Positions 2,894 through 35,530 of a stretch of DNA of 64,000 nt are shown here, in pieces. Each line of letters begins with the position of its first letter. The stretch's first letter is position 1. The stretch is from an uncultured Acidimicrobiia bacterium (GTDB taxonomy: Bacteria; Actinomycetota; Acidimicrobiia; Spongiisociales; JAENVV01). A program made the translations under genes and the position numbers. Below the pieces are notes generated by a model, which saw only the letters and a program-made list of their open reading frames with translations, did not search any database and was not told the origin of the DNA. The stretch lies in the NCBI GenBank assembly GCA_963698385.1, contig CAVOQP010000006.1, positions 150,318 to 214,317 on the forward strand, read 5' to 3'.

Positions 2894-4486
2894 ATGACGC
2901 ACCAGGCGCCTCGTACCCTCCACGTCGTCGGACTCGGTCCCGGTTCCCTCGACCGGGTGAGCGGGAGAACGCTGGAGCTCCTGTTGGACGCCGACTGCAC
3001 CGTGCTGCTCCGCACGACCGAGCACCCCGCCGCCGAGGAATTGTCAGCCCAGCGTGAGGTGCGTGGCTTCGACGAGGTCTATCAGCAGTCGGAGACCTTC
3101 GATGAGGTCTACGAGGAGATCGCTCGCCAGGTCGTGGCTCGGGCTTCCGAGGCATCGGTGGTCTATGCGGTCCCCGGCTCTCCCCTCGTCGGCGAACGGA
3201 CCGTCCCACTGATCAGGGCGCTGGCCTCGAAGGCCGGACTCACCATCGAGGTCCACCCGGCCGAGTCGTTCATCGATTGCTCGCTGGCCGCGGTCGGCCT
3301 GGACCCGCTGTTCAGCGGCCTCCAAGTGCTCGATGGACACGACCTGCCCGATCCGCTCGAACTGCACCTCCCCACCTTGATCGGGCATCTCACCCTCCCG
3401 ATCATCGTCGCCGACATCCTCGACCGTCTCCGTGGCCTCCTCCCCGATGACCAACCCGTCACCGTCCTGACGAACGTCGGTGGACCGGGCGAGACCGTGG
3501 AACTCACTGCGCTCACCGACCTGACCCCGGACCTGGCCGGCCTCAGGGTCTCCCTCTTCCTCGACCCGGGTCCGAACGGACTCCACGGAGCCATCACCAC
3601 GATGCGCAGGCTGCGGGTCGAATGCCCGTGGGATGCCGAGCAGACGCACCAGAGCATTCTTCCCAACCTCGTCGAGGAAGCCTTCGAGTTGTACGACGCG
3701 CTCGAGGCGGTGGGGGAGGGCGTGCCCGGCGAGGGAGTGGAGCCCGCCTGGGGCGCATACGGCGAGGTCGAGGAGGAACTCGGTGACGTGCTCCTCCAGG
3801 TCTTGTTCCACACCACCATGGGCGAGGAGATCGGCGGCGTCTCGCTCGACGGTGTGACAACCACTCTGCGGGAGAAGCTCGAGCGGCGCCACCCCCACGT
3901 CTTTGGTGACGTCGAAGCCGGCACGGCCGGGGAGACGCTCGATCGGTGGGAACGGATCAAGGCTGATGAGAAGCGGCGACAGTCCGCGCTCGACGGCGTG
4001 CCACGCTCCCTGCCGGCCATCCCGCGAGCGATGAAACTCCAGCAGCGGGCCGCCCGAGTCGGATTCGATTGGGACTCGGTCCCCCCGGTGCTCGCCAAGG
4101 TCCGCGAGGAGATCGGCGAGTTGGAGGAGGCGATCGGAACCGATCACGCGCCGCATGAGGTGGGCGACCTCATCTTTGCCGTCGTCAACCTCGCTCGGCA
4201 CCTCGGGATCGATCCCGAACTGGCAGCACGGCGGGCCGTGGATCGATTCGACTCCCGATTCCGGAGCGTCGAGGCCATGGCGGAGGGGCCGCTCGACGAG
4301 ATGACGCTCGACCAACTCGACGCCCTGTGGGAGCGGGCGAAGGAGTACGAAGTACGGAGTACGGAGAGGCAGAGAACGGAGAACGGGGAACGGAGCCAGA
4401 GGGACGACGGATGGGGGACGCGTGGAGGGAGTACGGAGTACGGAGAAAGAGGGCCCGAGCCAGGGCTGCGGGCTCCCGGCCCGTGA
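2894..4486 (+). CDS. mazG: MazG nucleoside triphosphate pyrophosphohydrolase, YabN-type with N-terminal tetrapyrrole-methylase-like domain; C-terminal ~45 aa encoded by tandem repeats
   Basis: N-terminus HVVGLGPGSLDRVS...LLLDADCTVLLRT resembles the TP-methylase fold. Two MazG/EEXXE-type repeats (EVEEELGDVLLQVLF... and EIGELEEAIG...EVGDLIFAVVNLARHLGIDPE). Immediately downstream of mfd, as is typical. Confidence 0.8.
   Translation: MTHQAPRTLHVVGLGPGSLDRVSGRTLELLLDADCTVLLRTTEHPAAEELSAQREVRGFDEVYQQSETFDEVYEEIARQVVARASEASVVYAVPGSPLVGERTVPLIRALASKAGLTIEVHPAESFIDCSLAAVGLDPLFSGLQVLDGHDLPDPLELHLPTLIGHLTLPIIVADILDRLRGLLPDDQPVTVLTNVGGPGETVELTALTDLTPDLAGLRVSLFLDPGPNGLHGAITTMRRLRVECPWDAEQTHQSILPNLVEEAFELYDALEAVGEGVPGEGVEPAWGAYGEVEEELGDVLLQVLFHTTMGEEIGGVSLDGVTTTLREKLERRHPHVFGDVEAGTAGETLDRWERIKADEKRRQSALDGVPRSLPAIPRAMKLQQRAARVGFDWDSVPPVLAKVREEIGELEEAIGTDHAPHEVGDLIFAVVNLARHLGIDPELAARRAVDRFDSRFRSVEAMAEGPLDEMTLDQLDALWERAKEYEVRSTERQRTENGERSQRDDGWGTRGGSTEYGERGPEPGLRAPGP
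4340..4486 (+). repeat. GA-rich short tandem repeat block (GTACGGAGTACGGAG / GAGAACGGAGAACGG units) forming the 3' tail of the mazG ORF
   Basis: Direct reading: gagtacgaagtacggagtacggagaggcagagaacggagaacggggaacggag ... gagtacggagtacggagaaagag. It encodes the low-complexity peptide YEVRSTERQRTENGERS...STEYGERG. Confidence 0.7.
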
Positions 4487-7318: not shown

Positions 7319-7344
7319 CTGCGTCTGCGTCTGCGTCTGCGTCT
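7319..7344. repeat. (CTGCGT)x4 hexanucleotide tandem repeat in the rpe/msiK divergent intergenic region
   Basis: Direct reading: ccctgcgtctgcgtctgcgtctgcgtcttg. Confidence 0.8.
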
Positions 7345-10100: not shown

Positions 10101-13100
10101 ATGAGCATCGAGCCCGAGCATCGAGCCCGGACTCGCGCGGTCGCTGTCGCGCTCGTATTGGTCGCATGCACGGCCGGGACCCCCACCCCGGCACCGGACG
10201 TTCCGGAGGTCGCCCCGACCGAGGTGGATGTAGACGTAGACGTCGAACGCGATCCCTCCTTCCAACTCATGCTGCTCTGGCATCAACACCAGCCCTTCTA
10301 CCCCAAGGACGATGAGGGAGTTGTCACCCGCCCGTGGGTGCGAGTCCATGCCACCAAGGACTACGTCGACACGGCCACGCTCCTCGAGCAGTACCCCGAC
10401 GTCCACGCCACCATCAACCTCACCCCGGTGCTCATGCTGCAGCTCGAGGAGCTCCAAGCAGGCGTGCGCGACAGCTACTGGGTCCACTCCGAGATCCCGG
10501 CCGACGACCTGGATGATGACGAGAAGCGGTTCCTCCTGACCCGCCTCTTCGATGTCAACGCCCGGGTCATCGACCGCTTCCCCCGCTACCGGGAGCTCGC
10601 CGACCGGCGCACGGAAGCCGGCGGAGGCGAAGCCAACCTCGGAGTATTCACCACCGCCGAGTACCGCGACCTCCAAGTGCTCTTCAACCTCGCGTGGACC
10701 GACCCCGACTTCCTGACCGTGGCACCGCTCGCAGCGCTGGTCGCCAAGGGACGGGATTTCACCGAGGAGGACAAGGCTGTGCTCCTGGCCGAGCATGAGC
10801 GGATTGTTGGCGAAGTGTTCGAAGTGCACCGTCGGATGTGGGACGCCGGCCAGATCGAGGTCATCACCACCCCATTGGCGCATCCCATCCTCCCCCTCGT
10901 GATCGACACCTCGGTGGCGCTCGTCGGTGACCCGACCGCTGTCATGCCGGACGGAAGGTTCAACGAACCCGACGATGCCGTCGAACAGGTGGAGCGTGGG
11001 CTCGATGTCGCCGAACGCCTCCTCGGGCGCCGGCCAGTGGGGATGTGGCCGGGTGAGGGGGCCGTGAGCCAACCTGCCGCGGCAGTGATGTCGCGCGCCG
11101 GCATCCAGTGGATCGCCACCGGGGAGCCGGTGCTCGCCGCCTCGCTCGGCCGCGGAAGCGGATTCGCCCGAGGGGAGAACGGCGTCCCCGACGATGCGGA
11201 GCTTCTCTACCGCCCGTGGTCGGCGACCTTCGGCCGGAACCCGGATCTCCCCATCTTCTTCCGGGACCTCCGCCTCTCCGACCTCGTCGGCTTCGAGTAC
11301 TCGGGCATGAGCGGGGAGGACGCGGCGCAGGACTTCATGGACCGCCTGGCAGCCATCAAGGCGGCGCTCGGCCCGGCCGACCCGGGGCAGCCCTGGGTGG
11401 TGAGCGTGGTGCTCGACGGCGAGAACGCCTGGGAGCAGGACGACGACGACGGCAAGGACTTCTTCCACGCCCTCTACTCCAAGCTCTCCGGGGCCGACTG
11501 GCTGACGACCACGACACCGTCGGCCTACCTGGCCGCCCACGATCCACCGCAGGCACTCCCCGGTGAGGTGTTCCCTTCGTCATGGTTCCAGGCCAACTAC
11601 GCCACTTGGATCGGGGAGGACGAAGAGGCAGCCGCCTGGGACTACCTCATCGAGGCCCGTACCGACCTCACAGCCGCAGGCACCACCGGGGCGTATACCG
11701 ACGCGCAGTTGGCCGCTGCCCGCGAGGCGATCCTCTTCGCCGAGGGATCCGACTGGTTCTGGTGGTATGGCGCCGACCGGTGGTCGGGAGACGACGGCTA
11801 CTTCGACACAGCGTTCCGAGCGTGGCTCGCCCGCATGTACCGCGCCCTCGGACAGGAGGTACCCGGGTACGTGGACGTGCCGATCGTCGCTTCCGCCCCT
11901 TCCGAACCGTCGGCGACCAGCTCGGAGGTCATCACCCCCGTCATCGACGGAGTCCAATCCGAGGGGGAGTGGGCGGCTGCCACCGTCTACGGGTTCACCG
12001 ACGCCACTCCATCCCTCGTCGCCCTCGGCTTCGACACAGCCTCCCTCCATCTGCTCATCGACGGCTTCGGCCATCCGATCACGATCGAGCTGGGCGTCCC
12101 GTCGGGCATGGCCACCCGGGGCAGGACCATCGACGGCGCCCCCGTCGGATTCGGGGTGACCCACCAGCTCCAGGTGAGCGACGACCAAGCGTGCCTCCGC
12201 CCCGCAACCGAGGACGGCTCCCCCGACCTCACCTGCTCCCCGGCAGCGTGGAATTCGGGCCTGTGGGAGGCATCGATCCCGGTGACCGACATCGGGTTCC
12301 CTGGAGGCCGGGCGACCGGGTCCTGTTCCGGATAGTGGCCCCCGAAGGGCTCCTTCCCGAGTTCGCCCCCGGCTACGTCCAAGTCCCGGACAGCTCGACC
12401 GTTGACGTTCGTTTCGCGGCCATCGACCCGACTGGGGACGACACAGGGATCGGGACCTACACCTACGCCAAGGACGCGGTGTTCGGCTCCGGGTCGTACG
12501 ACCTCACCCGGTTCACGGCAGGCATCGATGGTGAGGATGTCGTTTTCACGGTCGAGGTCAACGCCCCGATCCGCAACCCGTGGGGGAGCGCAGTCGGCCT
12601 CTCCATCCAGACCTTCGACATCTACCTCGACACCGACCCGGGAGCCGGGACCGGCGCCCGCCTCCTCATCCCTGGGCGAAACGCCGCGCTCGCCGCCGGC
12701 AATGGGTGGGAGTACGCGGTCACCGTCGAGGGGTGGGACCCGTCCATGTACATCGCCGCGGCCGACGGCACGATCGAGGAGACGAAGCCGACCTTCAAGA
12801 CAGTCGTCCTCGGCGACAAGGGGAAGGTGCTCATTCGCATTCCAGCTCAACTCCTCGGCGGAGGCGACCCGGCGGACTGGGGCTACGTCGTTGCCCTCCT
12901 CGGCCAAGAGGGATACCCGTCTGGCGGAGTGCGTCGGGTCCGGGACGTCAACCCGGCAGCGGAGCAGTGGCGGTTCGGAGGTGCCCCCGAAGGCACGACC
13001 AACCACACCCGCATCATGGACCTCATCTGGCCCGAGGAGGGAGGGGTGCAGGGTGGAATCGGTGCCCAGGCAGGGTTCCTGTCCGGCTTCCCCCGCCTCG

Positions 13101-20609: not shown

Positions 20610-20635
20610 GGGCCGCAGCGCGGCCCAGTTCGACG

Positions 20636-20726
20636 TCCCAAGTCCCAAGTTCAAGATGTGCTGGCTGCGGGGCTGGGTGGTCCGTCGTCCGTCGTCCTCT
20701 GTCCTCTGTCCTCGGTCCTCGGTCCC
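20636..20726. repeat. short tandem repeat block: (GTCCCAA)x2 then heptamer series GTCCGTC x2, GTCCTCT x2, GTCCTCG x2
   Basis: Direct reading: gtcccaagtcccaagttcaag ... gtccgtcgtccgtcgtcctctgtcctctgtcctcggtcctcggtcc. Confidence 0.8.
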
Positions 20727-20734
20727 CCCACGCG

Positions 20735-20768
20735 GTCCGGCCCGGGGTGGAAGCCCCGGGCCGGACGG
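20735..20768. terminator. perfect 13-bp-stem hairpin between convergent genes (bidirectional terminator candidate)
   Basis: gtccggcccgggg-tggaag-ccccgggccggac. Lies between the stop of the 2-hydroxyacid dehydrogenase (+) and the stop of the livK-type gene (-). Confidence 0.6.
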
Positions 20769-22809: not shown

Positions 22810-23820
22810 CTACTCGACGGTCCACGTACCGAGGCTGCGGACCAGCTTTGCAAGGTCGCCGGGACCCCGCTTCTCCTGCACCTCGGCGAGTTGGCGATTC
22901 AAGGCGTCGTCGTACGCTTCGCGTGGCGTGTCGAGGAAGACCCCCAGCGGTGCAGGTCCGCTGGGGCCCTGGTTGAGGCGACTGAGGGCGAAAGCCTGGC
23001 TGCGCGAGTACGACGTCTCGTCATGGACGAGGATGCGGTCCATGGCGACCGATGCCGTCTCGACGATCTTGGCCTCGGCACCATCGAGCATGACCGCATA
23101 CTCACCGTCGGGTCCGAAGATGAGCGGCTCGCCGTGGCGCATGTAGATGCGGTTGTGGGCCCGCTCCTCCTTGCCGGTGAGCTTGATGAATGCCTTGTCG
23201 TTGAACACGTTGCAGTTCTGGTAGATCTCGATGAAGGCCGTGCCCCGGTGGGCGTGGGCTCGTTCGAGCATCTCGACGGTGTGGCCCGGGTCGGAGTCGA
23301 GAGTCCGGGCAACGAACGTGGCTTCGGCCCCGAGGGCGAGGCTGATCGGGTTGAACGGGTAGTCCAAGGATCCGACCGGCGACGACTTCGTTTTCTTCCC
23401 CTGCTCGGAGGTGGGGGAGTACTGGCCCTTGGTGAGTCCGTAGATCTGGTTGTTGAACAGCAGGATCTTGAGGTTGACGTTGCGTCGCAGGGCGTGGATG
23501 AGGTGATTGCCGCCGATCGACAGGGCGTCGCCGTCCCCGGTGATGACCCAGACGTCGAGGTCGGGTCGGGACGATGCGAGGCCGGTGGCGATGGCCGGTG
23601 CTCGCCCGTGGATCGAGTGCATCCCGTAGGTGTTCATGTAGTAGGGGAAGCGGCTCGAACAGCCGATGCCGGAGATGAAGACGATCTTCTCCCTGGCGAC
23701 GCCCATTTCTGCCATGTACCGCTGGACGCTGGAGAGGATCGTGTAGTCGCCACACCCGGGGCACCAGCGGGGCTCCTGGTCGGTCTGGAAGTCCGCCCGT
23801 GTGTAGTTGAGCGTCGTCAT
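22810..23820 (-). CDS. korB: 2-oxoglutarate:ferredoxin oxidoreductase beta subunit (TPP-binding)
   Basis: WCPGCGDYTILSS...FISGIGCSSRFPYY...ITGDGDALSIGGNHLIHALRRNVNLKILLFNNQIYGLTKGQ matches the KorB TPP-binding fold. Start overlaps korA stop. Confidence 0.8.
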   Translation of the reverse strand: MTTLNYTRADFQTDQEPRWCPGCGDYTILSSVQRYMAEMGVAREKIVFISGIGCSSRFPYYMNTYGMHSIHGRAPAIATGLASSRPDLDVWVITGDGDALSIGGNHLIHALRRNVNLKILLFNNQIYGLTKGQYSPTSEQGKKTKSSPVGSLDYPFNPISLALGAEATFVARTLDSDPGHTVEMLERAHAHRGTAFIEIYQNCNVFNDKAFIKLTGKEERAHNRIYMRHGEPLIFGPDGEYAVMLDGAEAKIVETASVAMDRILVHDETSYSRSQAFALSRLNQGPSGPAPLGVFLDTPREAYDDALNRQLAEVQEKRGPGDLAKLVRSLGTWTVE

Positions 23821-25685
23821 GCCGTCATCTCCAGGATCTTGTCGCGTATCTCCGAGATCTTGAATGGCTCGGCAGCGACTTTGTTGAGGCCCTCGGTGGG
23901 AACCAGGAACTCGGCCCGGAGGATGTAGCGGAGTTGGCCGCTGTTCAGTTCGGGGACGAGGATCTTCTTGTAGGAACCCAAGACCTCACCGAGGTTCCTC
24001 GGGAACGGGTTGAGGTACCGGAGGTGGGCGCGAGCGACCTTGGTCCCGCGGTTCCGGCGGAGATTGTTGACCGCCGCCTTGATGGGCGGGAAGGTCGACC
24101 CCCAGCCGAGCACCAGCACGTCGGCCCCGTCGGGGTCATCCACCTCGAGGTCGGGTATGTCATTGGCGATACCGGCGATCTTGGCGGCACGGGCATCGGT
24201 CATGACTTGGTGGTTGGTGGTGTCGTAGGAGACGTTGCCGGTGACCGACTCGCTCTCGAGGCCGCCGATGCGGTGTTCGAGGCCCGCCGTACCCGGGATG
24301 GCCCAAGGGCGCGCCAGGGTGACGGAGTCGCGGAGGTAGGGGAGGAATGTCCCGTCCGGGGAGTTGGGGGCCGTCGCGTACCCGCCCGTGAGGTCCGGCA
24401 GTTCGTCGATGTCGGGGATGGCCCACGGTTCGGAGCCGTTCGCGACGTTGTTGTCCGAGAGCAGGATCACCGGGGTCATGAACTTGAGGGCGATCCGCGC
24501 CGCCTCGATCGCCACATCGAAGGCGTCCGACGGCGATGCAGCAGCGATGATCGGGAGCGGCGACTCCCCGTGGCGGCCGAAGAGCGCGAAGAGGAGGTCG
24601 GACTGCTCGGGCTTGGTCGGGAGACCCGTGGAAGGCCCGCCGCGCTGGACGTCGACGATGATCATCGGGAGTTCGGTCATCACGGCCAGGCTGATCGCCT
24701 CGCTCTTGAGAGCGAGACCGGGTCCCGACGTGCCGGTGATGGCGAGGCTGCCTCCGAACGCGGCGCCGATGACCGAACCGATGGCGGCGATCTCGTCCTC
24801 CGCCTGGAAGGTCCGAACTCCGAAATTCTTGTGCTTCGCCAGTTCGTGGAGGATGTCGGTGGCGGGTGTGATCGGGTACGAACCGTAGAAGACGGGGAGA
24901 TTCGCTTGCTGACCGGCGGCGATGAGGCCCCAGGCCAGCGCCATGTTCCCGCTGATGTTCGTGTAGGTGCCCGGGCGGAGTTGGGCTGGCTGAACGTGGA
25001 AGGTGGTCTTGAACGCCTCGGTCGTGAGTCCGAAGTTGTATCCACCGCGCAGGGCACCGATGTTGGCATCGACCACGGTGGGGTTGCTGGCGAACTTCGT
25101 CCTCACCCAGTCGATGGACGGCTCGAGGGGGCGGTTGAAGAGCCAGGCGAGGAGTCCGACTGCAAGCATGTTCTTCGACCGCAATGCCTCGCGACCGGAG
25201 ACACCGCTGTTGACGACCGCTTCCTTGGTGAGCTTCTCCATCGGTACTTCGATGACGCGGTATCCCTCGAGATCACCGTTCTCCAAGGGGTTGTGGTCCC
25301 ACTCGGCCTTCTCCAGGTTCCGTTCGGTGAAGGCGTCGGTGTTGACGATGATCGTGCCGTTCTTGCGAACGTCGGCCAGGTTGGCCTTGAGGGCGGCCGG
25401 GTTCATGGCTACCAGTACGTCGGGTTCGTCCCCAGCGGTGAGGATGTCGAAGTCGGCGATCTGGACCTGGTAGGAGCTCACCCCGGCGATCGTGCCTTGG
25501 GGCGCCCGGATCTCGGCCGGGAAGGAGGGGAGGGTTGCGAGGTCGTTGCCGAACAGGGCGGAGGCTTCGGTGAAGCGCGAGCCGGCGACCTGCATTCCGT
25601 CTCCGGAGTCGCCGGCGAAGCGGATGATCACCTTTTCGAGGTGCTCTGCTTCTACCCCATCGGGGAGGGTTCTTGTGTCAGACAC
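23817..25685 (-). CDS. korA: 2-oxoglutarate:ferredoxin oxidoreductase alpha subunit
   Basis: 622 aa. Pyruvate/2-oxoacid:ferredoxin oxidoreductase domain order gamma-like N-term + alpha core (AGYPITPATDILHELAKH). Confidence 0.8.
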   Translation of the reverse strand: MSDTRTLPDGVEAEHLEKVIIRFAGDSGDGMQVAGSRFTEASALFGNDLATLPSFPAEIRAPQGTIAGVSSYQVQIADFDILTAGDEPDVLVAMNPAALKANLADVRKNGTIIVNTDAFTERNLEKAEWDHNPLENGDLEGYRVIEVPMEKLTKEAVVNSGVSGREALRSKNMLAVGLLAWLFNRPLEPSIDWVRTKFASNPTVVDANIGALRGGYNFGLTTEAFKTTFHVQPAQLRPGTYTNISGNMALAWGLIAAGQQANLPVFYGSYPITPATDILHELAKHKNFGVRTFQAEDEIAAIGSVIGAAFGGSLAITGTSGPGLALKSEAISLAVMTELPMIIVDVQRGGPSTGLPTKPEQSDLLFALFGRHGESPLPIIAAASPSDAFDVAIEAARIALKFMTPVILLSDNNVANGSEPWAIPDIDELPDLTGGYATAPNSPDGTFLPYLRDSVTLARPWAIPGTAGLEHRIGGLESESVTGNVSYDTTNHQVMTDARAAKIAGIANDIPDLEVDDPDGADVLVLGWGSTFPPIKAAVNNLRRNRGTKVARAHLRYLNPFPRNLGEVLGSYKKILVPELNSGQLRYILRAEFLVPTEGLNKVAAEPFKISEIRDKILEMTA

Positions 25686-25833
25686 GGTTCACTTTCCTGG
25701 GGCTGGACAGGTCTAGCGGCACCTGCAATGGCCAATTGTCCCACAGACGCCGGGCTTGTCTGGAGCATTGGAGTCTCCGCGGGGGCCGGGGTGCCTCGCT
25801 ACCGGCCACATGTCCGTGCGGTACCCTCCCGGG

Positions 25834-27045
25834 ATGAGCGAAGTCTTCATCGTCGATGCCTGCCGGACGCCGATCGGGAAGCTGGGAGGCGTGCTGGCCC
25901 ACGTCCGCCCGGACGACCTGGCGGCCCACATCCTCGACCGCCTCATGCAGCGGAATCCGACGGTCGATCCGTCCCTGGTCGAGGACGTTGTGTGGGGTGC
26001 GGCGAACCAGGCCGGGGAGGACAACCGCGACGTTGCCCGGATCGCCGCCCTCCTCGCAGGCTTCCCGGTGGAGGTGGCCGGCGTGACCGTCAATCGGCTG
26101 TGTGGCTCCAGCCTGCAGGCGACCATCCAAGCCGGGCAGGCCCTCAAGGACGGCTGGGGCTCGTTCATGATCGCCGGCGGGTCGGAGTCGATGAGCCGTG
26201 CGCCTCTCGTGATGATGACGAAGCCGCAGTCAGCCTTCCGGCCCGGGATCCCCGAGGTTGCCGACACAACGCTCGGTTGGCGCCTCGTCAACCCCCGCTG
26301 GCCCGATGTCCACAGGGCGCTCAGCATGGGTGAGACCGCCGAAGAGGTGGCCGAGCGGTTCCGGGTCTCCCGCGACGACCAGGACGCGTTCGCTCTGGAA
26401 TCCCATCGTCGGGCGGTGGCGGCGATGGATGGGGGTCGTCTCGCTGGTCAGATCGAGGCCATCGAAGCCCCCCAGGATGCCCGGGGACGGCAGGTCGTCC
26501 GGGTGACCGAGGACGAGGGCCCGCGTCGGGAGGCCAACCTGGAGTCGATGGCCAGGCTGAAGCCGGTGTTCCGTGACGGCGGGACCGTCACGGCGGGGAA
26601 TGCCTCCCAGATGAACGATGGGGCCGCCGCCGTCCTGCTGGCAACGGGGGCCGCCGTCGAGCGGCACGGCCTGCAGCCGATGGCTCGCATCGTCTCGGGG
26701 GCCGCGGTGGGGGTGCATCCCGACATCATGGGGATCGGGCCGGTGCCTGCCAGTCGCAAGGCCCTCGAACGGGCGGGCCTGGCCATCGAGGACGTCGGTC
26801 TTGCGGAGCTCAATGAGGCATTTGCCTCCCAGGCGATCGCCTGCGTGCGGGAGCTCGGTCTCGACCCCGAGATCGTGAACACGAACGGCGGTGCCATCGC
26901 CAACGGGCACCCGTTGGGGGCGTCTGGGGCGAAGATCCTGACCACCCTCCTCCATGAGATGCAGGCGCGGGACGTCCGGTATGGGTTGGCGTCGATGTGT
27001 ATCGGGGTTGGCCAGGGAGTGGCGATCGTGGTGGAGAAGGTCTAG
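25834..27045 (+). CDS. acetyl-CoA C-acyltransferase (thiolase II family)
   Basis: MSEVFIVDACRTPIGK...NRLCGSSLQA (active Cys)...NGGAIANGHPLGASGA...CIGVGQGVA. ATG 25834 is in frame with track ORF 25756..27045. Confidence 0.85.
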   Translation: MSEVFIVDACRTPIGKLGGVLAHVRPDDLAAHILDRLMQRNPTVDPSLVEDVVWGAANQAGEDNRDVARIAALLAGFPVEVAGVTVNRLCGSSLQATIQAGQALKDGWGSFMIAGGSESMSRAPLVMMTKPQSAFRPGIPEVADTTLGWRLVNPRWPDVHRALSMGETAEEVAERFRVSRDDQDAFALESHRRAVAAMDGGRLAGQIEAIEAPQDARGRQVVRVTEDEGPRREANLESMARLKPVFRDGGTVTAGNASQMNDGAAAVLLATGAAVERHGLQPMARIVSGAAVGVHPDIMGIGPVPASRKALERAGLAIEDVGLAELNEAFASQAIACVRELGLDPEIVNTNGGAIANGHPLGASGAKILTTLLHEMQARDVRYGLASMCIGVGQGVAIVVEKV

Positions 27046-27145
27046 GGCGAGCCGCCCGAGCACGAGCATGAACCCGAGCCGGAGTCCGAACCGGACTCCG
27101 AGTTTGAGCCCGAGTCCGAGCGTGAATCCGAGCACGAGCCCGAGC
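27046..27145. repeat. degenerate tandem repeat block (GAGCCCGAG / GAGCACGAGC units) in the convergent thiolase/amidase intergenic region
   Basis: Direct reading: cccgagcacgagcatgaacccgagccggagtccgaaccggactccgagtttgagcccgagtccgagcgtgaatccgagcacgagcccgagc. The same GCCCGAGCACGAGCC core recurs at 29645-29735. Confidence 0.75.
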
Positions 27146-28519
27146 TCAGCTGAAGGGCGGTGGGCGGAATCCGAAGGTGCCGGCGGCCTCGGCCCTCCTC
27201 GACACTCCCAGCAGCAGGGCCTCGGCTCCCCATGGGGCGATGAGCTGGATCGAGTGGGGGAGGCCGGTGCCCTCGGTGAGGGGGGCCGTCAGGGCTGGGG
27301 TTTGCATGTGGTTGACGAGTGAGGCGAACCAGGCCAGGGCGATGCGGTACGGGTGATCGATGTCGTCGACGGTGATCATCGGCTGGCCGATCACCTTGCG
27401 ATTTGCACCGACGGCGGGCGTTGCCAGTATGTCAACCGAGTCGAACGCCCGCTCGGTGGCGGACTTCAAGGAGGCCTGCCAAGCGAGAGCGTCGACGAGT
27501 TGGTCGGACGTGATGCCGAGAGCGAGCAGGAGGCGCTCTTCGACCTCGGGGCCGTACTCCATGGTCGGGTCTTCCAGCCAGTCGCGGTGGACGGAGGCGG
27601 CTTGTGCTCCCATCAGCACGTTGAGCTCGCCCCACGGGGCGAGGGTGGGGGCGCTGATCTCCGTCACGGTCGCTCCGCTGTCGGCCAACTGGTCGAGTGT
27701 CCTGTGGAATGCCGCGGAGATGCCAGCATCGAGAGGTGCACTGGCGAGCCACTCGGCAGGCACGCCGATGCGGAGCGGCCAGCGGTCGACCGCTTCCGGA
27801 CGGTTCGGGATGCTCCAAGGATCCAACGGGTCGTACCCCTTCATGACCTCGAACACGGTGGCGAGATCGGCCGACGTACGTGCAAATGGGCCGACAGTGT
27901 CGACGGAGGCGGCGAGTGGGAAGACACCGGTGAGCGGGACCCGCCCGTGGGTGACCTTGAGGCCGAAGGTCCCCGTGAGGGCCGCAGGGACCCGCACGCT
28001 CCCGCCGGTGTCGGTGCCAATCCCGATCGGTGCGAGACCGCCGGCGACTGCGGCCGCCGAGCCACCCGACGAACCTCCGGGTGACGTCGTGAGGTCCCAT
28101 GGGTTCCTCACCGGACCGAACCAGTGGTTCTCGGAGGAGAAGCCGTACGCGAATTCATGGAGGTTGGTACGCCCCACGATCACGGTCCCCGCGTCTTCGA
28201 GCCTCTGGACGACTGTCGCCGAGACGGACGGCGTCTGGCGGTGGAAACCGGACCCGCAGGTCGTCACCTCCCCGGCCTGGTCGATGAGGTCCTTGAGGGC
28301 CACGGGGACACCGGTGAGGGGTCCCGGGTCGTCACCGGCTGCGAGCCGAGCGTCGAGGTCGGCCGCTCGGGCCATGACCCGATCCTCGGGGACGGAGGTG
28401 AAGGCGTTGAGCTGTGAGCCACGGATGCGGTCCAGGTGGGAACGCGCCACGGCGGTCACCGTCGTCTCGCCGGCCTTGACAGCGGCGGTGATGTCGGCTG
28501 CGGTCGACCCGACTACCAC
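27146..28519 (-). CDS. amidase signature (AS) family amidase (GatA-like)
   Basis: GGSSGGSAAAVAGGLAPIGIGTDTGGSVRVPAALTGTFGLKVTHGRV is the AS signature with catalytic Ser. Likely GTG start at 28519 rather than the track ORF start 28735, which overlaps the upstream gene. Confidence 0.8.
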   Translation of the reverse strand: MVVGSTAADITAAVKAGETTVTAVARSHLDRIRGSQLNAFTSVPEDRVMARAADLDARLAAGDDPGPLTGVPVALKDLIDQAGEVTTCGSGFHRQTPSVSATVVQRLEDAGTVIVGRTNLHEFAYGFSSENHWFGPVRNPWDLTTSPGGSSGGSAAAVAGGLAPIGIGTDTGGSVRVPAALTGTFGLKVTHGRVPLTGVFPLAASVDTVGPFARTSADLATVFEVMKGYDPLDPWSIPNRPEAVDRWPLRIGVPAEWLASAPLDAGISAAFHRTLDQLADSGATVTEISAPTLAPWGELNVLMGAQAASVHRDWLEDPTMEYGPEVEERLLLALGITSDQLVDALAWQASLKSATERAFDSVDILATPAVGANRKVIGQPMITVDDIDHPYRIALAWFASLVNHMQTPALTAPLTEGTGLPHSIQLIAPWGAEALLLGVSRRAEAAGTFGFRPPPFS

Positions 28520-29601
28520 GTGACCTCTCGGCCGTTGGGGAAGATCGCAACCCAGAGCTTGCCCGGGGGCACCTGGAGTGCAGCGCCGGAGGCATCCGTG
28601 AGATCGAACACCTTCGAGGTCGACGACCGTGACCACGTCCCCTTGGCGACGGCCCCGTTCGAGAAGACGAACGCATTGCCGGACCCGACGGTGTCCATGG
28701 CGGGGACGCAGGACCCCTGGTCGGCGGGTGGGCACTTGGAGTATCGATCGGCGAAGAGCACCACGATGGTCTGGGCCGTGATCGTCTCCTCAGTGGTCGT
28801 GTCTCCCTTGTCCGGGAAGACCGTGTGGGGCTTGGTGCCAGCGAAGCGGAGGTACCCCGACCCGTCGAAGTGCCAGGTGACGTCTTCCATGTCGTCGGAC
28901 CAATCGAACGTGATGGCGAGGGCCGGTTCGGTTCCCCGCAGGGGCCCGAAGTCGAAGAATCGGGGTGGGGGGTCGTCCTCGTAGCCTCGCCTGTCGGCTA
29001 TCTCCCGGAGGAGGGTGGTGTCGACATAGAGGTTGTGGGGTGCCGAGCGGTGGGAGACGCGGAACGCAGCCGGAGGCTCCTCCCCGATGAGGTGGACGTC
29101 GAGGCTGCGGATGAGCGACTGCACCCATGCCTGTGCCCCCGAGATCGTGAACGTGGCTCCGAGTGGGGCCAGGAGGGTCGGGTCTGTGGGTCGCCCTGAG
29201 CGGTTCGGGCCGAGGTAGTCGGTGTCGGACTGGAGGAAGAGGGCGATGAACCGAGTGAGACCTGCTTCGACGAGCATCTCATAGACGGCGTCGGCGTCCT
29301 CCAGGCCGGACTGTGGCCTTGCGTTCCAGTGATTGTCGACCTTCACGGCCATCACCCGGCGGTTGATCGAGTCTTCATCGGCGACGAACAGGCCGTTGAG
29401 GGGTGACTCGAACCCCGCCGGTGGTTCGGTGGTCGTGGTCGTCAGGATGGTCGTGGCAGGGATCGTGGCCCGGGGTTCGGTGGAGCCCTGGGTGGATTGT
29501 GGGGTGTCTGTGGGAGCGGATGTCCCCGTGGTGTCGTCGCCACCACAGGCGGCGACGACCAACAGGAGCGTCAGCAGGAACGCGATGAATCGGATGCGCA
29601 T
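28513..29601 (-). CDS. DUF3048 (YerB-like) lipoprotein
   Basis: ATG at 29601 is in frame with the track ORF. MRIRFIAFLLTLLLVVAACGG lipobox. VMAVKVDNHWNARPQSGLEDADAVYEMLVEAGLTRFIALF matches the DUF3048 N-domain. The upstream part of the track ORF (LVLVWLVLVLV) is simply the translated tandem repeat. Confidence 0.6.
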   Translation of the reverse strand: MRIRFIAFLLTLLLVVAACGGDDTTGTSAPTDTPQSTQGSTEPRATIPATTILTTTTTEPPAGFESPLNGLFVADEDSINRRVMAVKVDNHWNARPQSGLEDADAVYEMLVEAGLTRFIALFLQSDTDYLGPNRSGRPTDPTLLAPLGATFTISGAQAWVQSLIRSLDVHLIGEEPPAAFRVSHRSAPHNLYVDTTLLREIADRRGYEDDPPPRFFDFGPLRGTEPALAITFDWSDDMEDVTWHFDGSGYLRFAGTKPHTVFPDKGDTTTEETITAQTIVVLFADRYSKCPPADQGSCVPAMDTVGSGNAFVFSNGAVAKGTWSRSSTSKVFDLTDASGAALQVPPGKLWVAIFPNGREVTW

Positions 29602-29644
29602 GAGATGGCGCAGGATAGGGGGAGGGGCGTTATCGGCGGTCACA

Positions 29645-29735
29645 CGCCCGAGCACGAGCCAGACAAGCACGAGCACGAGCACGAGCCAGACAAGCACGAG
29701 CCAGACAAGCCCGAGCACGAGCCAGAGCGCGTTGT
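29645..29735. repeat. tandem repeat block (CACGAGC / CAGACAAG units) sharing the GCCCGAGCACGAGCC core with the 27046-27145 block
   Basis: Direct reading: gcccgagcacgagccagacaagcacgagcacgagcacgagccagacaagcacgagccagacaagcccgagcacgagccagagcgc. Confidence 0.8.
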
Positions 29736-29826
29736 GGGACTGCGCCACCACCCACGGCCCCCTACCCCGCACGAGTCCTTGCTGCGCTCGGCCGATGCGG
29801 GGGCCCCTTCCCCCCGCCTGCGGCGA

Positions 29827-29866
29827 GGGGACAGACATGTGTTGCGACGATGCGTTGTCTGTCCCC
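29827..29866 (-). terminator. 11-bp perfect-stem hairpin ~100 nt downstream of sodN, followed by a second 7-bp hairpin (ccccagc-gaa-gctgggg); candidate sodN terminator
   Basis: ggggacagaca-(18 nt)-tgtctgtcccc read directly. No U-tract, as is usual in high-GC genomes. Confidence 0.4.
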
Positions 29867-29967
29867 CCAGCGAAGCTGGGGGGAAGGTCCTGCCCCGGAG
29901 CGAAGCGAAGGGGGAGGTAGGGGGGAACGCGCGGGCCGAGCCTTCTGCCCCCGTGTCTGAACTCGCG

Positions 29968-30384
29968 CTAGCCGGGCGGATACACCCCGACGTTGGCCGA
30001 TTCGGCGGTCTGCCAGAAGATGTCCGCGATCTCATCGATGAGGCGAACCAGTTCCTCGGAGACTGCCGGGTCCATCGACTTCTTGGCGTCTCCGGCCTGC
30101 TTGATCGCTTTCCAGAACGTGTCGTGGAGTTGGGGGAACGCTTCGAGGTGGTGGGGCTTGAAGAAGTCCGTCCATAGGACCGACAGGTGGTGCTTCACCA
30201 ATTCGGCACGCTCCTCCTTGATCGAGATGGCCCTGGCACGGAAGACGTCATCCTCGGAGGCGTGGTACTTGTTGGCGCATTGAAGGACCGACTTGGCCTC
30301 GATCATCGCCTGGGCGGGGTCGTAGACGCCACAGAAGAGATCGCAATGGGCATGGGCGACGGTGGGTGGACGGAAGAGGCGCAT
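29968..30384 (-). CDS. sodN: nickel-containing superoxide dismutase precursor
   Basis: 138 aa. Pro-peptide MRLFRPPTVAHA followed by the Ni-hook HCDLFCGVYDPAQA. Overall similarity to Streptomyces SodN (..IKEERAELVKHHLSVLWTDFFKP..IFWQT). Position 5 of the hook is Phe (ttc) rather than the usual Pro. Confidence 0.85.
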   Translation of the reverse strand: MRLFRPPTVAHAHCDLFCGVYDPAQAMIEAKSVLQCANKYHASEDDVFRARAISIKEERAELVKHHLSVLWTDFFKPHHLEAFPQLHDTFWKAIKQAGDAKKSMDPAVSEELVRLIDEIADIFWQTAESANVGVYPPG

Positions 30385-30430: not shown

Positions 30431-30841
30431 GTGTCGAAGCGATGGGGACTCTTCCAAGTAGCCGAACACTCCATGGCGCCCGCCCTCCGATCGGGTGACC
30501 GAGTGGTGGCGATCCATCGTCCACTCGCGGCCGGTGTAATCGTGGTGTTCGAGGCCGCCGATGGGATGGTCATGGTGAAGCGAGTCGTCGGGCTCCCCGG
30601 GGACACCGTCACGATCGGCCACGGGATGGTGTTGGTCAACGGGACGCCACGCGAGGATGTCCTCGACACACCCGGTGAAGGGTCGTGGAGCATCGGTCCG
30701 GGGGAGTGCTTCGTGCTCTCCGATGCCAGGGACTTGACCTTGGCCGACAGTCGTACGTTCGGCCCGATCGACGTCTCGTCGATCCTGGGCACCGTCGCGT
30801 TCCGCTATCGACCGCTCTCCCGGATGGGACGCCCTCGCTGA
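30431..30841 (+). CDS. sodX: S26 signal-peptidase-like NiSOD maturation protease
   Basis: Divergent from sodN with a 46-bp gap. EHSMAPALRSGDRVV (S26 catalytic Ser box) and VKRVVGLPGDTVTI box. 136 aa, as for SodX. Confidence 0.65.
   Translation: MSKRWGLFQVAEHSMAPALRSGDRVVAIHRPLAAGVIVVFEAADGMVMVKRVVGLPGDTVTIGHGMVLVNGTPREDVLDTPGEGSWSIGPGECFVLSDARDLTLADSRTFGPIDVSSILGTVAFRYRPLSRMGRPR

Positions 30842-31855: not shown

Positions 31856-31859
<4 letters not shown>
30867..31859 (-). CDS. dihydroorotate-dehydrogenase-like (DHOD family) protein of the type co-encoded with pyruvate:ferredoxin oxidoreductase
   Basis: TIM-barrel PyrD-like sequence (LSLSSPIIATASPVTGTVSGLRKL...INGYTE...ELNIY...VKLGP...). 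Start overlaps the PFOR stop (translational coupling). Confidence 0.6.
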
Positions 31860-35425
<3,566 letters not shown>

Positions 35426-35460
35426 GAATCGAGGTTCTTGACAAAGCTACGCGATCTCGG

Positions 35461-35530
35461 CCCGGGCCCGAGCCCCGAGTCCCGAGCCCCGAGTCCCGAG
35501 CAAGCGGAAGATCGTCCGTCGTCCGTCGTT
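35461..35530. repeat. tandem repeats (CCCGAGC/CCCGAGT)x4 followed by (GTCCGTC)x2-3 in the PFOR/metG intergenic region
   Basis: Direct reading: cccgggcccgagccccgagtcccgagccccgagtcccgagcaagcggaagatcgtccgtcgtccgtcgttcg. Confidence 0.8.

Follow-up and report, generated by a model that had tools for sequence, protein, structure and literature searches.

Intergenic tandem arrays are familiar in actinobacteria from the variable-number tandem repeats (VNTRs) and mycobacterial interspersed repetitive units (MIRUs) of mycobacteria, which are sometimes in frame with flanking genes; MIRU units measure 40-100 nt and are polymorphic between strains. Long simple-sequence repeats (LSSRs), with units of 5-11 nt among which heptamers are over-represented, are attributed to polymerase slippage, and some Actinobacteria are rich in them (Mrazek et al. 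2007, as cited in PMC4679880 and PMC4692102). G-rich heptamer arrays are described from Xanthomonas (GGGAATC) and Nostoc (GGGGAYT, equivalent to STRR1, CCCCAGT) (PMC4692102), whilst the TAACTGA heptamer direct repeats of marine Beggiatoaceae precede start codons by a few nucleotides, suggesting translational control (PMC4679880). Here we describe two short-unit arrays, block 1 and block 2, that stand on either side of an amidase gene and a DUF3048 lipoprotein gene in a 64-kb stretch of the genome of an uncultured Acidimicrobiia bacterium (contig CAVOQP010000006.1; 66.7% G+C; hereafter the window, to which all counts given for this genome refer). The two arrays are built on a common hexamer, are related to each other, are absent from the same junctions in six related species and lie in a region locally enriched in such repeats. 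They are probably lineage-specific simple-sequence arrays of short (6-7 nt) units, produced by slippage or duplication between genes and at their ends, rather than selected elements.

The initial annotation of this locus had located both arrays correctly. Block 1 takes up all 100 nt that separate the convergent stop codons of the thiolase and amidase genes, and block 2 is a tandem array upstream of the DUF3048 gene, with its near end 41 nt from the ATG at 29601 (Table 1). The unit size of 7-10 nt given at that stage was wrong: the repeating unit is 6 nt, C[CA]CGAG, and a 9-nt unit, CCAGACAAG, occurs in block 2 as well. Tandem Repeats Finder (TRF) assigns block 1 a period of 6, together with 12, 18 and 30 as higher-order periods (70-77% matches, 0% indels), and block 2 periods of 6, 15, 21 and 27; a perfect 27-nt duplication lies inside block 2 at 29649-29701. 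Block 1 is degenerate and therefore probably older, whereas block 2, which still carries a perfect duplication, has therefore been active recently.

Properly aligned, the blocks prove to be related, with a mean column identity of 72% and common edges. The left edge of both is the exact 15-mer CGCCCGAGCACGAGC (27053-27067 and 29645-29659), 15 nt being also the longest exact identity between them, and at the right edge both follow the pattern CCGAGCACGAGCC[C/A]GAGC, 17 of 18 bases being equal (27128-27145 and 29711-29728). The claim that they share one string holds in part: the core is indeed related, but as an exact 15-mer the string is confined to block 2 (29646 and 29709), and block 1 carries it with one mismatch (27054) or two (27126). 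This shared core exceeds chance expectation, since GCCCGAGCACGAGCC, with up to two mismatches allowed, matches the window seven times, as compared with 0.63 +/- 0.80 times in shuffled sequence, and none of 100 shuffles reached seven. The motif is also dispersed within the window, as five CGAG[CT] clusters at four loci where 0.84 would be expected and where Markov simulations gave a maximum of three.

The same locus was compared in seven loci from six related Acidimicrobiia species; the closest database relatives of the window are themselves uncultured Acidimicrobiia. DUF3048 identity to the window ranges from 79% (L001; L032/L033) through 77% (L034), 75% (L030/L031) and 72% (L035) to 68% (L002). 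Among relatives in the searched collections nothing closer than 79% was found, and a metagenome scan with DUF3048 returned a best match of 76% identity (L029, partial and in a different gene context). The order sodN (nickel superoxide dismutase), DUF3048, amidase is kept in all the relatives, with the thiolase convergent to the amidase wherever the contig extends that far. Wherever the junctions are covered, neither block is found at them in the six relatives: block 1 is missing from the thiolase-amidase junction of L001, L002, L030, L032 and L035. In L001 and L032 the two stop codons overlap by 4 nt, and in L002, L030 and L035 they are separated by 10-12 nt, as against the 100-nt gap filled by block 1 in the window. 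Block 2 is likewise missing from the sodN-DUF3048 gap of all six, which measures 79-119 nt and holds one simple hairpin, whereas in the window it spans 366 nt and contains both block 2 and a palindromic stretch. Judged by this comparison, the gene order is evidently the older and the repeats came later in this lineage, after that order had been fixed, because the relatives share it without the repeats.

This distribution bears directly on the suggestion that the two genes form a recombination-prone cassette bounded by the direct repeats. It is true that related arrays, in direct orientation, flank exactly the amidase and DUF3048 genes, and the 7-nt overlap between these genes noted initially is real (amidase GTG at 28519, DUF3048 stop at 28513). 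The overlap is also called in L032, L034 and L035, and the pairing itself is kept in the relatives. Against a cassette, the pair stands between the same neighbours, free of repeats, in all six species (L001, L002, L030, L032, L034 and L035), and the longest block-to-block identity is as short as noted above. No recombinase or integrase gene was found among the eight neighbouring genes scanned, the thiolase, the pyruvate:ferredoxin/flavodoxin oxidoreductase (PFOR), sodN, a DHODH-like gene and metG included. Nor is the flanking unique to the pair, as the core recurs 6 kb and 17 kb away (35460-35501 and 10103-10129). We consequently give the cassette reading next to no credence.

Slippage or duplication is the most probable explanation of the blocks. 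The arrays most likely grew from a C[CA]CGAG seed, through slippage during replication or through tandem duplication in place, and their shared edges suggest copying or gene conversion between nearby arrays, or derivation from a common source. They have probably persisted at sites tolerant of insertion, between convergent stop codons in the case of block 1 and, in the case of block 2, in the interval from the sodN terminator to the core promoter of DUF3048. This explanation is supported by the nested recent duplications, by the absence of the blocks from relatives, by the similar absence of other arrays of the window, and by local enrichment. Under identical TRF settings, period-7 arrays of at least 2.5 copies number nine in the 64 kb of the window as against eight in 413 kb of related loci, a roughly seven-fold higher density, and none of those eight reaches a score of 36 or more. 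The core 13-mer has just two isolated copies in the approximately 413 kb of related loci. The blocks moreover have the attributes of long simple-sequence repeats, namely units of about 5-11 nt, occurrence above chance, a non-coding site and a presence that differs between related genomes. Their function is probably nil or incidental, neutrality being our inference; incidental effects might include the halting of convergent transcription by a hairpin in block 1 and an altered upstream context for the promoter in the case of block 2.

Several observations nevertheless weigh against so simple an origin. Three hint at constraint or at a directed process: GA is invariant in every hexamer of block 1, whose other four positions vary; a perfect 9-bp hairpin occupies its centre; and the four CGAGC loci all lie on the + strand. 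Two arrays 2.6 kb apart with the same two-hexamer edges are also poorly explained by independent slippage. The evidence, finally, covers 64 kb of the source genome, and the searched collections hold no second strain, slippage arrays being expected to vary in copy number. GC skew, used to orient the arrays with respect to replication, was driven by gene strand and proved uninformative.

Table 1. Positions of the arrays, associated elements and genes in the window.
Feature	Position	Strand	Description
Block 1	27046-27145	+	GGCGAG-CCG, then 15 in-register NNNGAR hexamers (27055-27144), consensus CCCGAG
Hairpin at centre of block 1	27080-27100		Perfect, 9 bp, CGGAGTCCG-AAC-CGGACTCCG; AGTTTGAG follows on + strand
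Block 2	about 29642-29728	+	(CCCGAG CACGAG CCAGACAAG)(CACGAG x3 CCAGACAAG)(CACGAG CCAGACAAG)(CCCGAG CACGAG CCAGAG)
-10-like motif	29610-29621	-	CCCCTATCCTGC, with -10-like TATCCT; 7-10 nt before DUF3048 ATG
Palindromic stretch	29745-29950		Long imperfect palindrome with nested hairpins, downstream of sodN; 32-nt arms 29806-29837 and 29856-29887
Third array	35460-35501	+	(CCCGAGC/CCCGAGT) x5, 7-nt period, same core; metG-PFOR gap
TCGTCCG array	35512-35529		x2.6; metG-PFOR gap; reuses GTCCGTC unit of 20680
13-nt tandem duplication	10103-10129	+	GAGCATCGAGCCC x2, CGAGC core; directly after ATG of GH57 glycoside hydrolase gene
GGAGTAC/GGAGAAC heptamers	4342-4445		3' end of TP_methylase-MazG fusion gene (open reading frame 2894-4486, +)
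GTCC-type arrays	20635-20725		GTCCCAA, GTCCGTC, GTCCTCT and GTCCTCG, two copies each; 3' untranslated region of 2-hydroxyacid dehydrogenase gene
CTGCGT array	7319-7344		x4.3, perfect; promoter region, about 20 nt upstream of ribulose-phosphate 3-epimerase (rpe) start
Thiolase	25756-27045	+	Stop TAG 27043-27045
Amidase	27146-28519	-	457 aa, PF01425; GTG start 28519; stop TCA 27146-27148; second gene of pair
DUF3048 lipoprotein	28513-29601	-	362 aa; ATG 29601; signal peptide MRIRFIAFLLTLLLVVAAC
sodN (nickel superoxide dismutase)	29968-30384	-
Open reading frame divergent from sodN	30431-30841	+	Relatives have a Peptidase_S26 (sodX-type) gene there

The remaining arrays of the window (Table 1) occur in varied settings. 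Those at 20680-20725 are not found in the orthologous gaps of L001 and L002, where the flanks are conserved, as is a terminator hairpin (about 20727-20766) that follows directly after the arrays. Similarly, the arrays at 35460-35529 are not found in the orthologous gap of L001, although the flanks are again conserved, and that at 35512-35529 resembles an expansion of sequence already present there. The third array shows no excess folding relative to shuffled sequence; its minus strand consists of GGG-N4 repeats and is, by sequence, capable of forming a G-quadruplex. A general G-quadruplex reading was rejected, blocks 1 and 2 having 6-nt units with sparse and widely spaced minus-strand GGG runs, so that only 35460-35501 fits. 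A weak period-7 match to CCGGAGC in two distant relatives (L008 and L009) was also set aside as unrelated, lying within a long open reading frame. The duplication of GAGCATCGAGCCC stands right behind the ATG called for the GH57 gene, and the true start codon may therefore be misplaced.

The heptamers at 4342-4445 span the last approximately 45 codons of the methylase-MazG gene, beyond its Pfam domains, and encode a low-complexity tail ending in EYEVRSTERQRTENGERSQRDDGWGTRGGSTEYGERGPEPGLRAPGP and a stop codon; it looks as if this array displaced the original stop codon. Together with the in-frame (X-E)n and (LV)n stretches that abut the thiolase and DUF3048 genes, this array-derived tail of about 45 residues hints at a bolder reading, in which the C[CA]CGAG, GTCC-type and GGAGNAC-type arrays would be what shows in this window of a recent burst, across the whole genome, of an orientation-biased STRR-like family that spreads by ectopic copying and remodels gene ends. 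We regard this as speculative and rather unlikely; were it true, such arrays would naturally give rise to new protein termini of low complexity.

A more restricted proposal is that the CGAGC arrays are an actively spreading dispersed element resembling the cyanobacterial STRR heptamers, inserted between genes in one orientation and by an unspecified copy mechanism, tandem expansion being secondary. The identical 15-mer at the left edges of the blocks and the near-identical right edges are what such an element would leave, and four core loci within 64 kb, all on the + strand, the absence of the arrays from relatives and the approximately seven-fold enrichment of heptamer arrays point the same way. 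However, we see no terminal inverted repeats, target-site duplications or transposase or recombinase genes, and unit length varies by locus (6, 7 or 13 nt). The array at 35512-35529, moreover, looks like a local expansion of L001-type sequence, which favours slippage, and the core 13-mer is nearly absent from the related loci. On balance a spreading element seems improbable.

If the arrays are instead selected cis-elements, they might act as phased protein-binding sites, as modules of the 3' untranslated region or terminator-insulators, or as an upstream element of variable copy number that tunes, or phase-varies, the DUF3048-amidase operon. The folding of block 1 is relevant here. On the minus strand it folds better than shuffled sequence (z = -3.15), whereas the plus strand does no better (z = -1.35), and in a test for intrinsic termination its perfect 9-bp stem is followed on the + strand by AGUUUGAG, with AGTTTG coming after the hairpin. 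The central hairpin is a possible, though unproven, candidate for a bidirectional terminator. A consensus scan for promoters and terminators found nothing within either block, and the relatives have no gap at this junction in which such a terminator could lie, with the result that the terminator-insulator role first suggested for the repeats retains the hairpin and its minus-strand folding in its favour and is weak at best. A structured RNA, the other role considered at the outset, has little in its favour: Rfam yielded no gathering-level match in the window, its sole sub-threshold match between 26950 and 30050 falling inside the DUF3048 gene, and block 2 folds at the level of shuffled sequence (z = 0.14 and -1.49 for the two strands).

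The position of block 2 offers the cis-element reading its other main argument. The window, L001 and L030 carry identical copies of the motif CCCCTATCCTGC, the copies of L002 (CCCCTATCCTCC) and L034 (CTCCTATCCTGC) each differ from it by one base, and the motif is conserved 7-10 nt before the DUF3048 ATG in all seven genomes (the window, L001, L002, L030, L032, L034 and L035). This conservation suggests that CCCCTATCCTGC is the likely core promoter and that the DUF3048-amidase transcript is leaderless or nearly so. The near end of block 2 lies some 20 nt upstream of this box; the window retains the box and homologous sequence to about 29640, and further upstream consists of block 2 and the palindromic stretch, neither of which occurs in the relatives. 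The proximity of block 2 to the conserved box of a lipoprotein operon, its very recent 27-nt duplication, the hairpin, minus-strand folding and invariant GA of block 1, the single strand shared by all four core loci, and published proposals that heptamer arrays serve as regulator binding sites (PMC4679880) would all be consistent with selection. Yet the same junctions are free of arrays in six relatives, shuffled sequence folds as well as block 2 and the third array do, neither a consensus terminator nor an Rfam match was obtained, and no single context is common to the arrays, which occupy a convergent gap, an upstream region, a 3' untranslated region and the insides of gene ends. We consider cis-element function unlikely, if by no means far-fetched.

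Between block 2 and sodN the initial annotation had reported 230 bp of non-coding sequence with hairpins. This stretch is real and measures about 240 nt (29727-29967). Its palindrome, of approximately 200 nt, includes a perfect 10-bp stem, TCCCCCCAGC/GCTGGGGGGA, folds better than shuffled sequence on both strands (z about -2.8) and is lineage-specific like block 2, the relatives having instead a single simple terminator hairpin. A search of the window for further copies returned only the original. Two genes of the pyruvate:ferredoxin/flavodoxin oxidoreductase type lie on either side of this region, encoding a 622-aa POR/POR_N protein (23817-25685) and a 1189-aa full-length PFOR (31856-35425).

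A last alternative is that the arrays are translated, block 1 as a Glu-rich (X-E)n tail of the thiolase through read-through of its TAG, and block 2 as a (LV)n-W extension of DUF3048 or, on the + strand, as a His/Glu-rich peptide beside sodN. Block 1 does continue in the thiolase frame, translating to PEHEHEPEPESEPDSEFEPESERESEHEPELS followed by a stop; a hand count of its G+C content by codon position gives a coding-like pattern of about 0.85/0.36/0.82, and its variation falls mostly at wobble positions (GAG/GAA, CAC/CAT, CCC/CCG). Every unit is a multiple of 3 nt, and block 2 lies in the DUF3048 frame and falls within the public gene call (P0001, 412 aa), which starts at GTG 29751 and renders the array as a (LV)n-W extension beginning MVAQSHNALWLVLGLVWLVLVWLVLVLVLVWLVLG. 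The thiolase TAG, however, is precisely where the thiolases of L001 and L032 end (...EKV), and block 1 contains no in-frame ATG, GTG or TTG. Two features downstream of block 2 are conserved, the -10-like box and the start of the signal peptide. On the + strand, the open reading frame over block 2 shows a non-coding pattern of G+C content by codon position (0.82/0.51/0.67), and it would extend into sodN in antisense. The third array shares the core, but its period of 7 nt cannot hold a reading frame, and the prior chance of lying in frame is one in three for each block. A periodicity scan of the whole window for (X-E)n found block 1 only, and hence no family of such reading frames. Translation is thus very unlikely, and the 50-residue (LV)n extension of P0001 is probably an annotation artefact due to the array, because the relatives start at an MR(I/L)... 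signal peptide.

If, as we favour, the arrays are products of slippage and local duplication, their practical importance lies in the ways they can mislead: they confuse gene callers, as the P0001 extension illustrates, and can pass for the boundaries of a cassette or for structured RNAs. Given strains, they might serve as variable-number markers. With units of 6-9 nt they are clearly distinct from the 40-100-nt MIRUs of mycobacteria. They are closest to LSSRs, which, to the extent that these are summarised in the citing papers, are likewise head-to-tail arrays of short units, mostly intergenic, sporadic by lineage and without an established function. On the same summaries, LSSR heptamers predominate whereas blocks 1 and 2 have 6-nt (plus 9-nt) units, and the enrichment seen here is that of a 64-kb window relative to related loci rather than of a whole genome.

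The arrays resemble those of Xanthomonas and Nostoc in being intergenic or near gene ends and in the strong variation of length and sequence between related species (PMC4692102). The third array (CCCGAGY, with GGG-N4 on the minus strand) shares with them, judged from its bases alone, the sequence requirements of a G-quadruplex, a motif that blocks 1 and 2 do not fit, having no regularly spaced G3 runs. Most Xanthomonas arrays keep the same flanking genes from one related species to another (PMC4692102), whereas those described here are absent from relatives. As with the TAACTGA repeats of Beggiatoaceae, one short motif forms arrays of 2-6 copies at many intergenic sites in a genome (PMC4679880), although the arrays here occupy mixed positions and their unit is different and G+C-rich. 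They bring an example from the Acidimicrobiia to the scattered set of bacterial lineages in which 6-7-nt intergenic arrays accumulate, a kind of repeat already known and one that implies no new mechanism.

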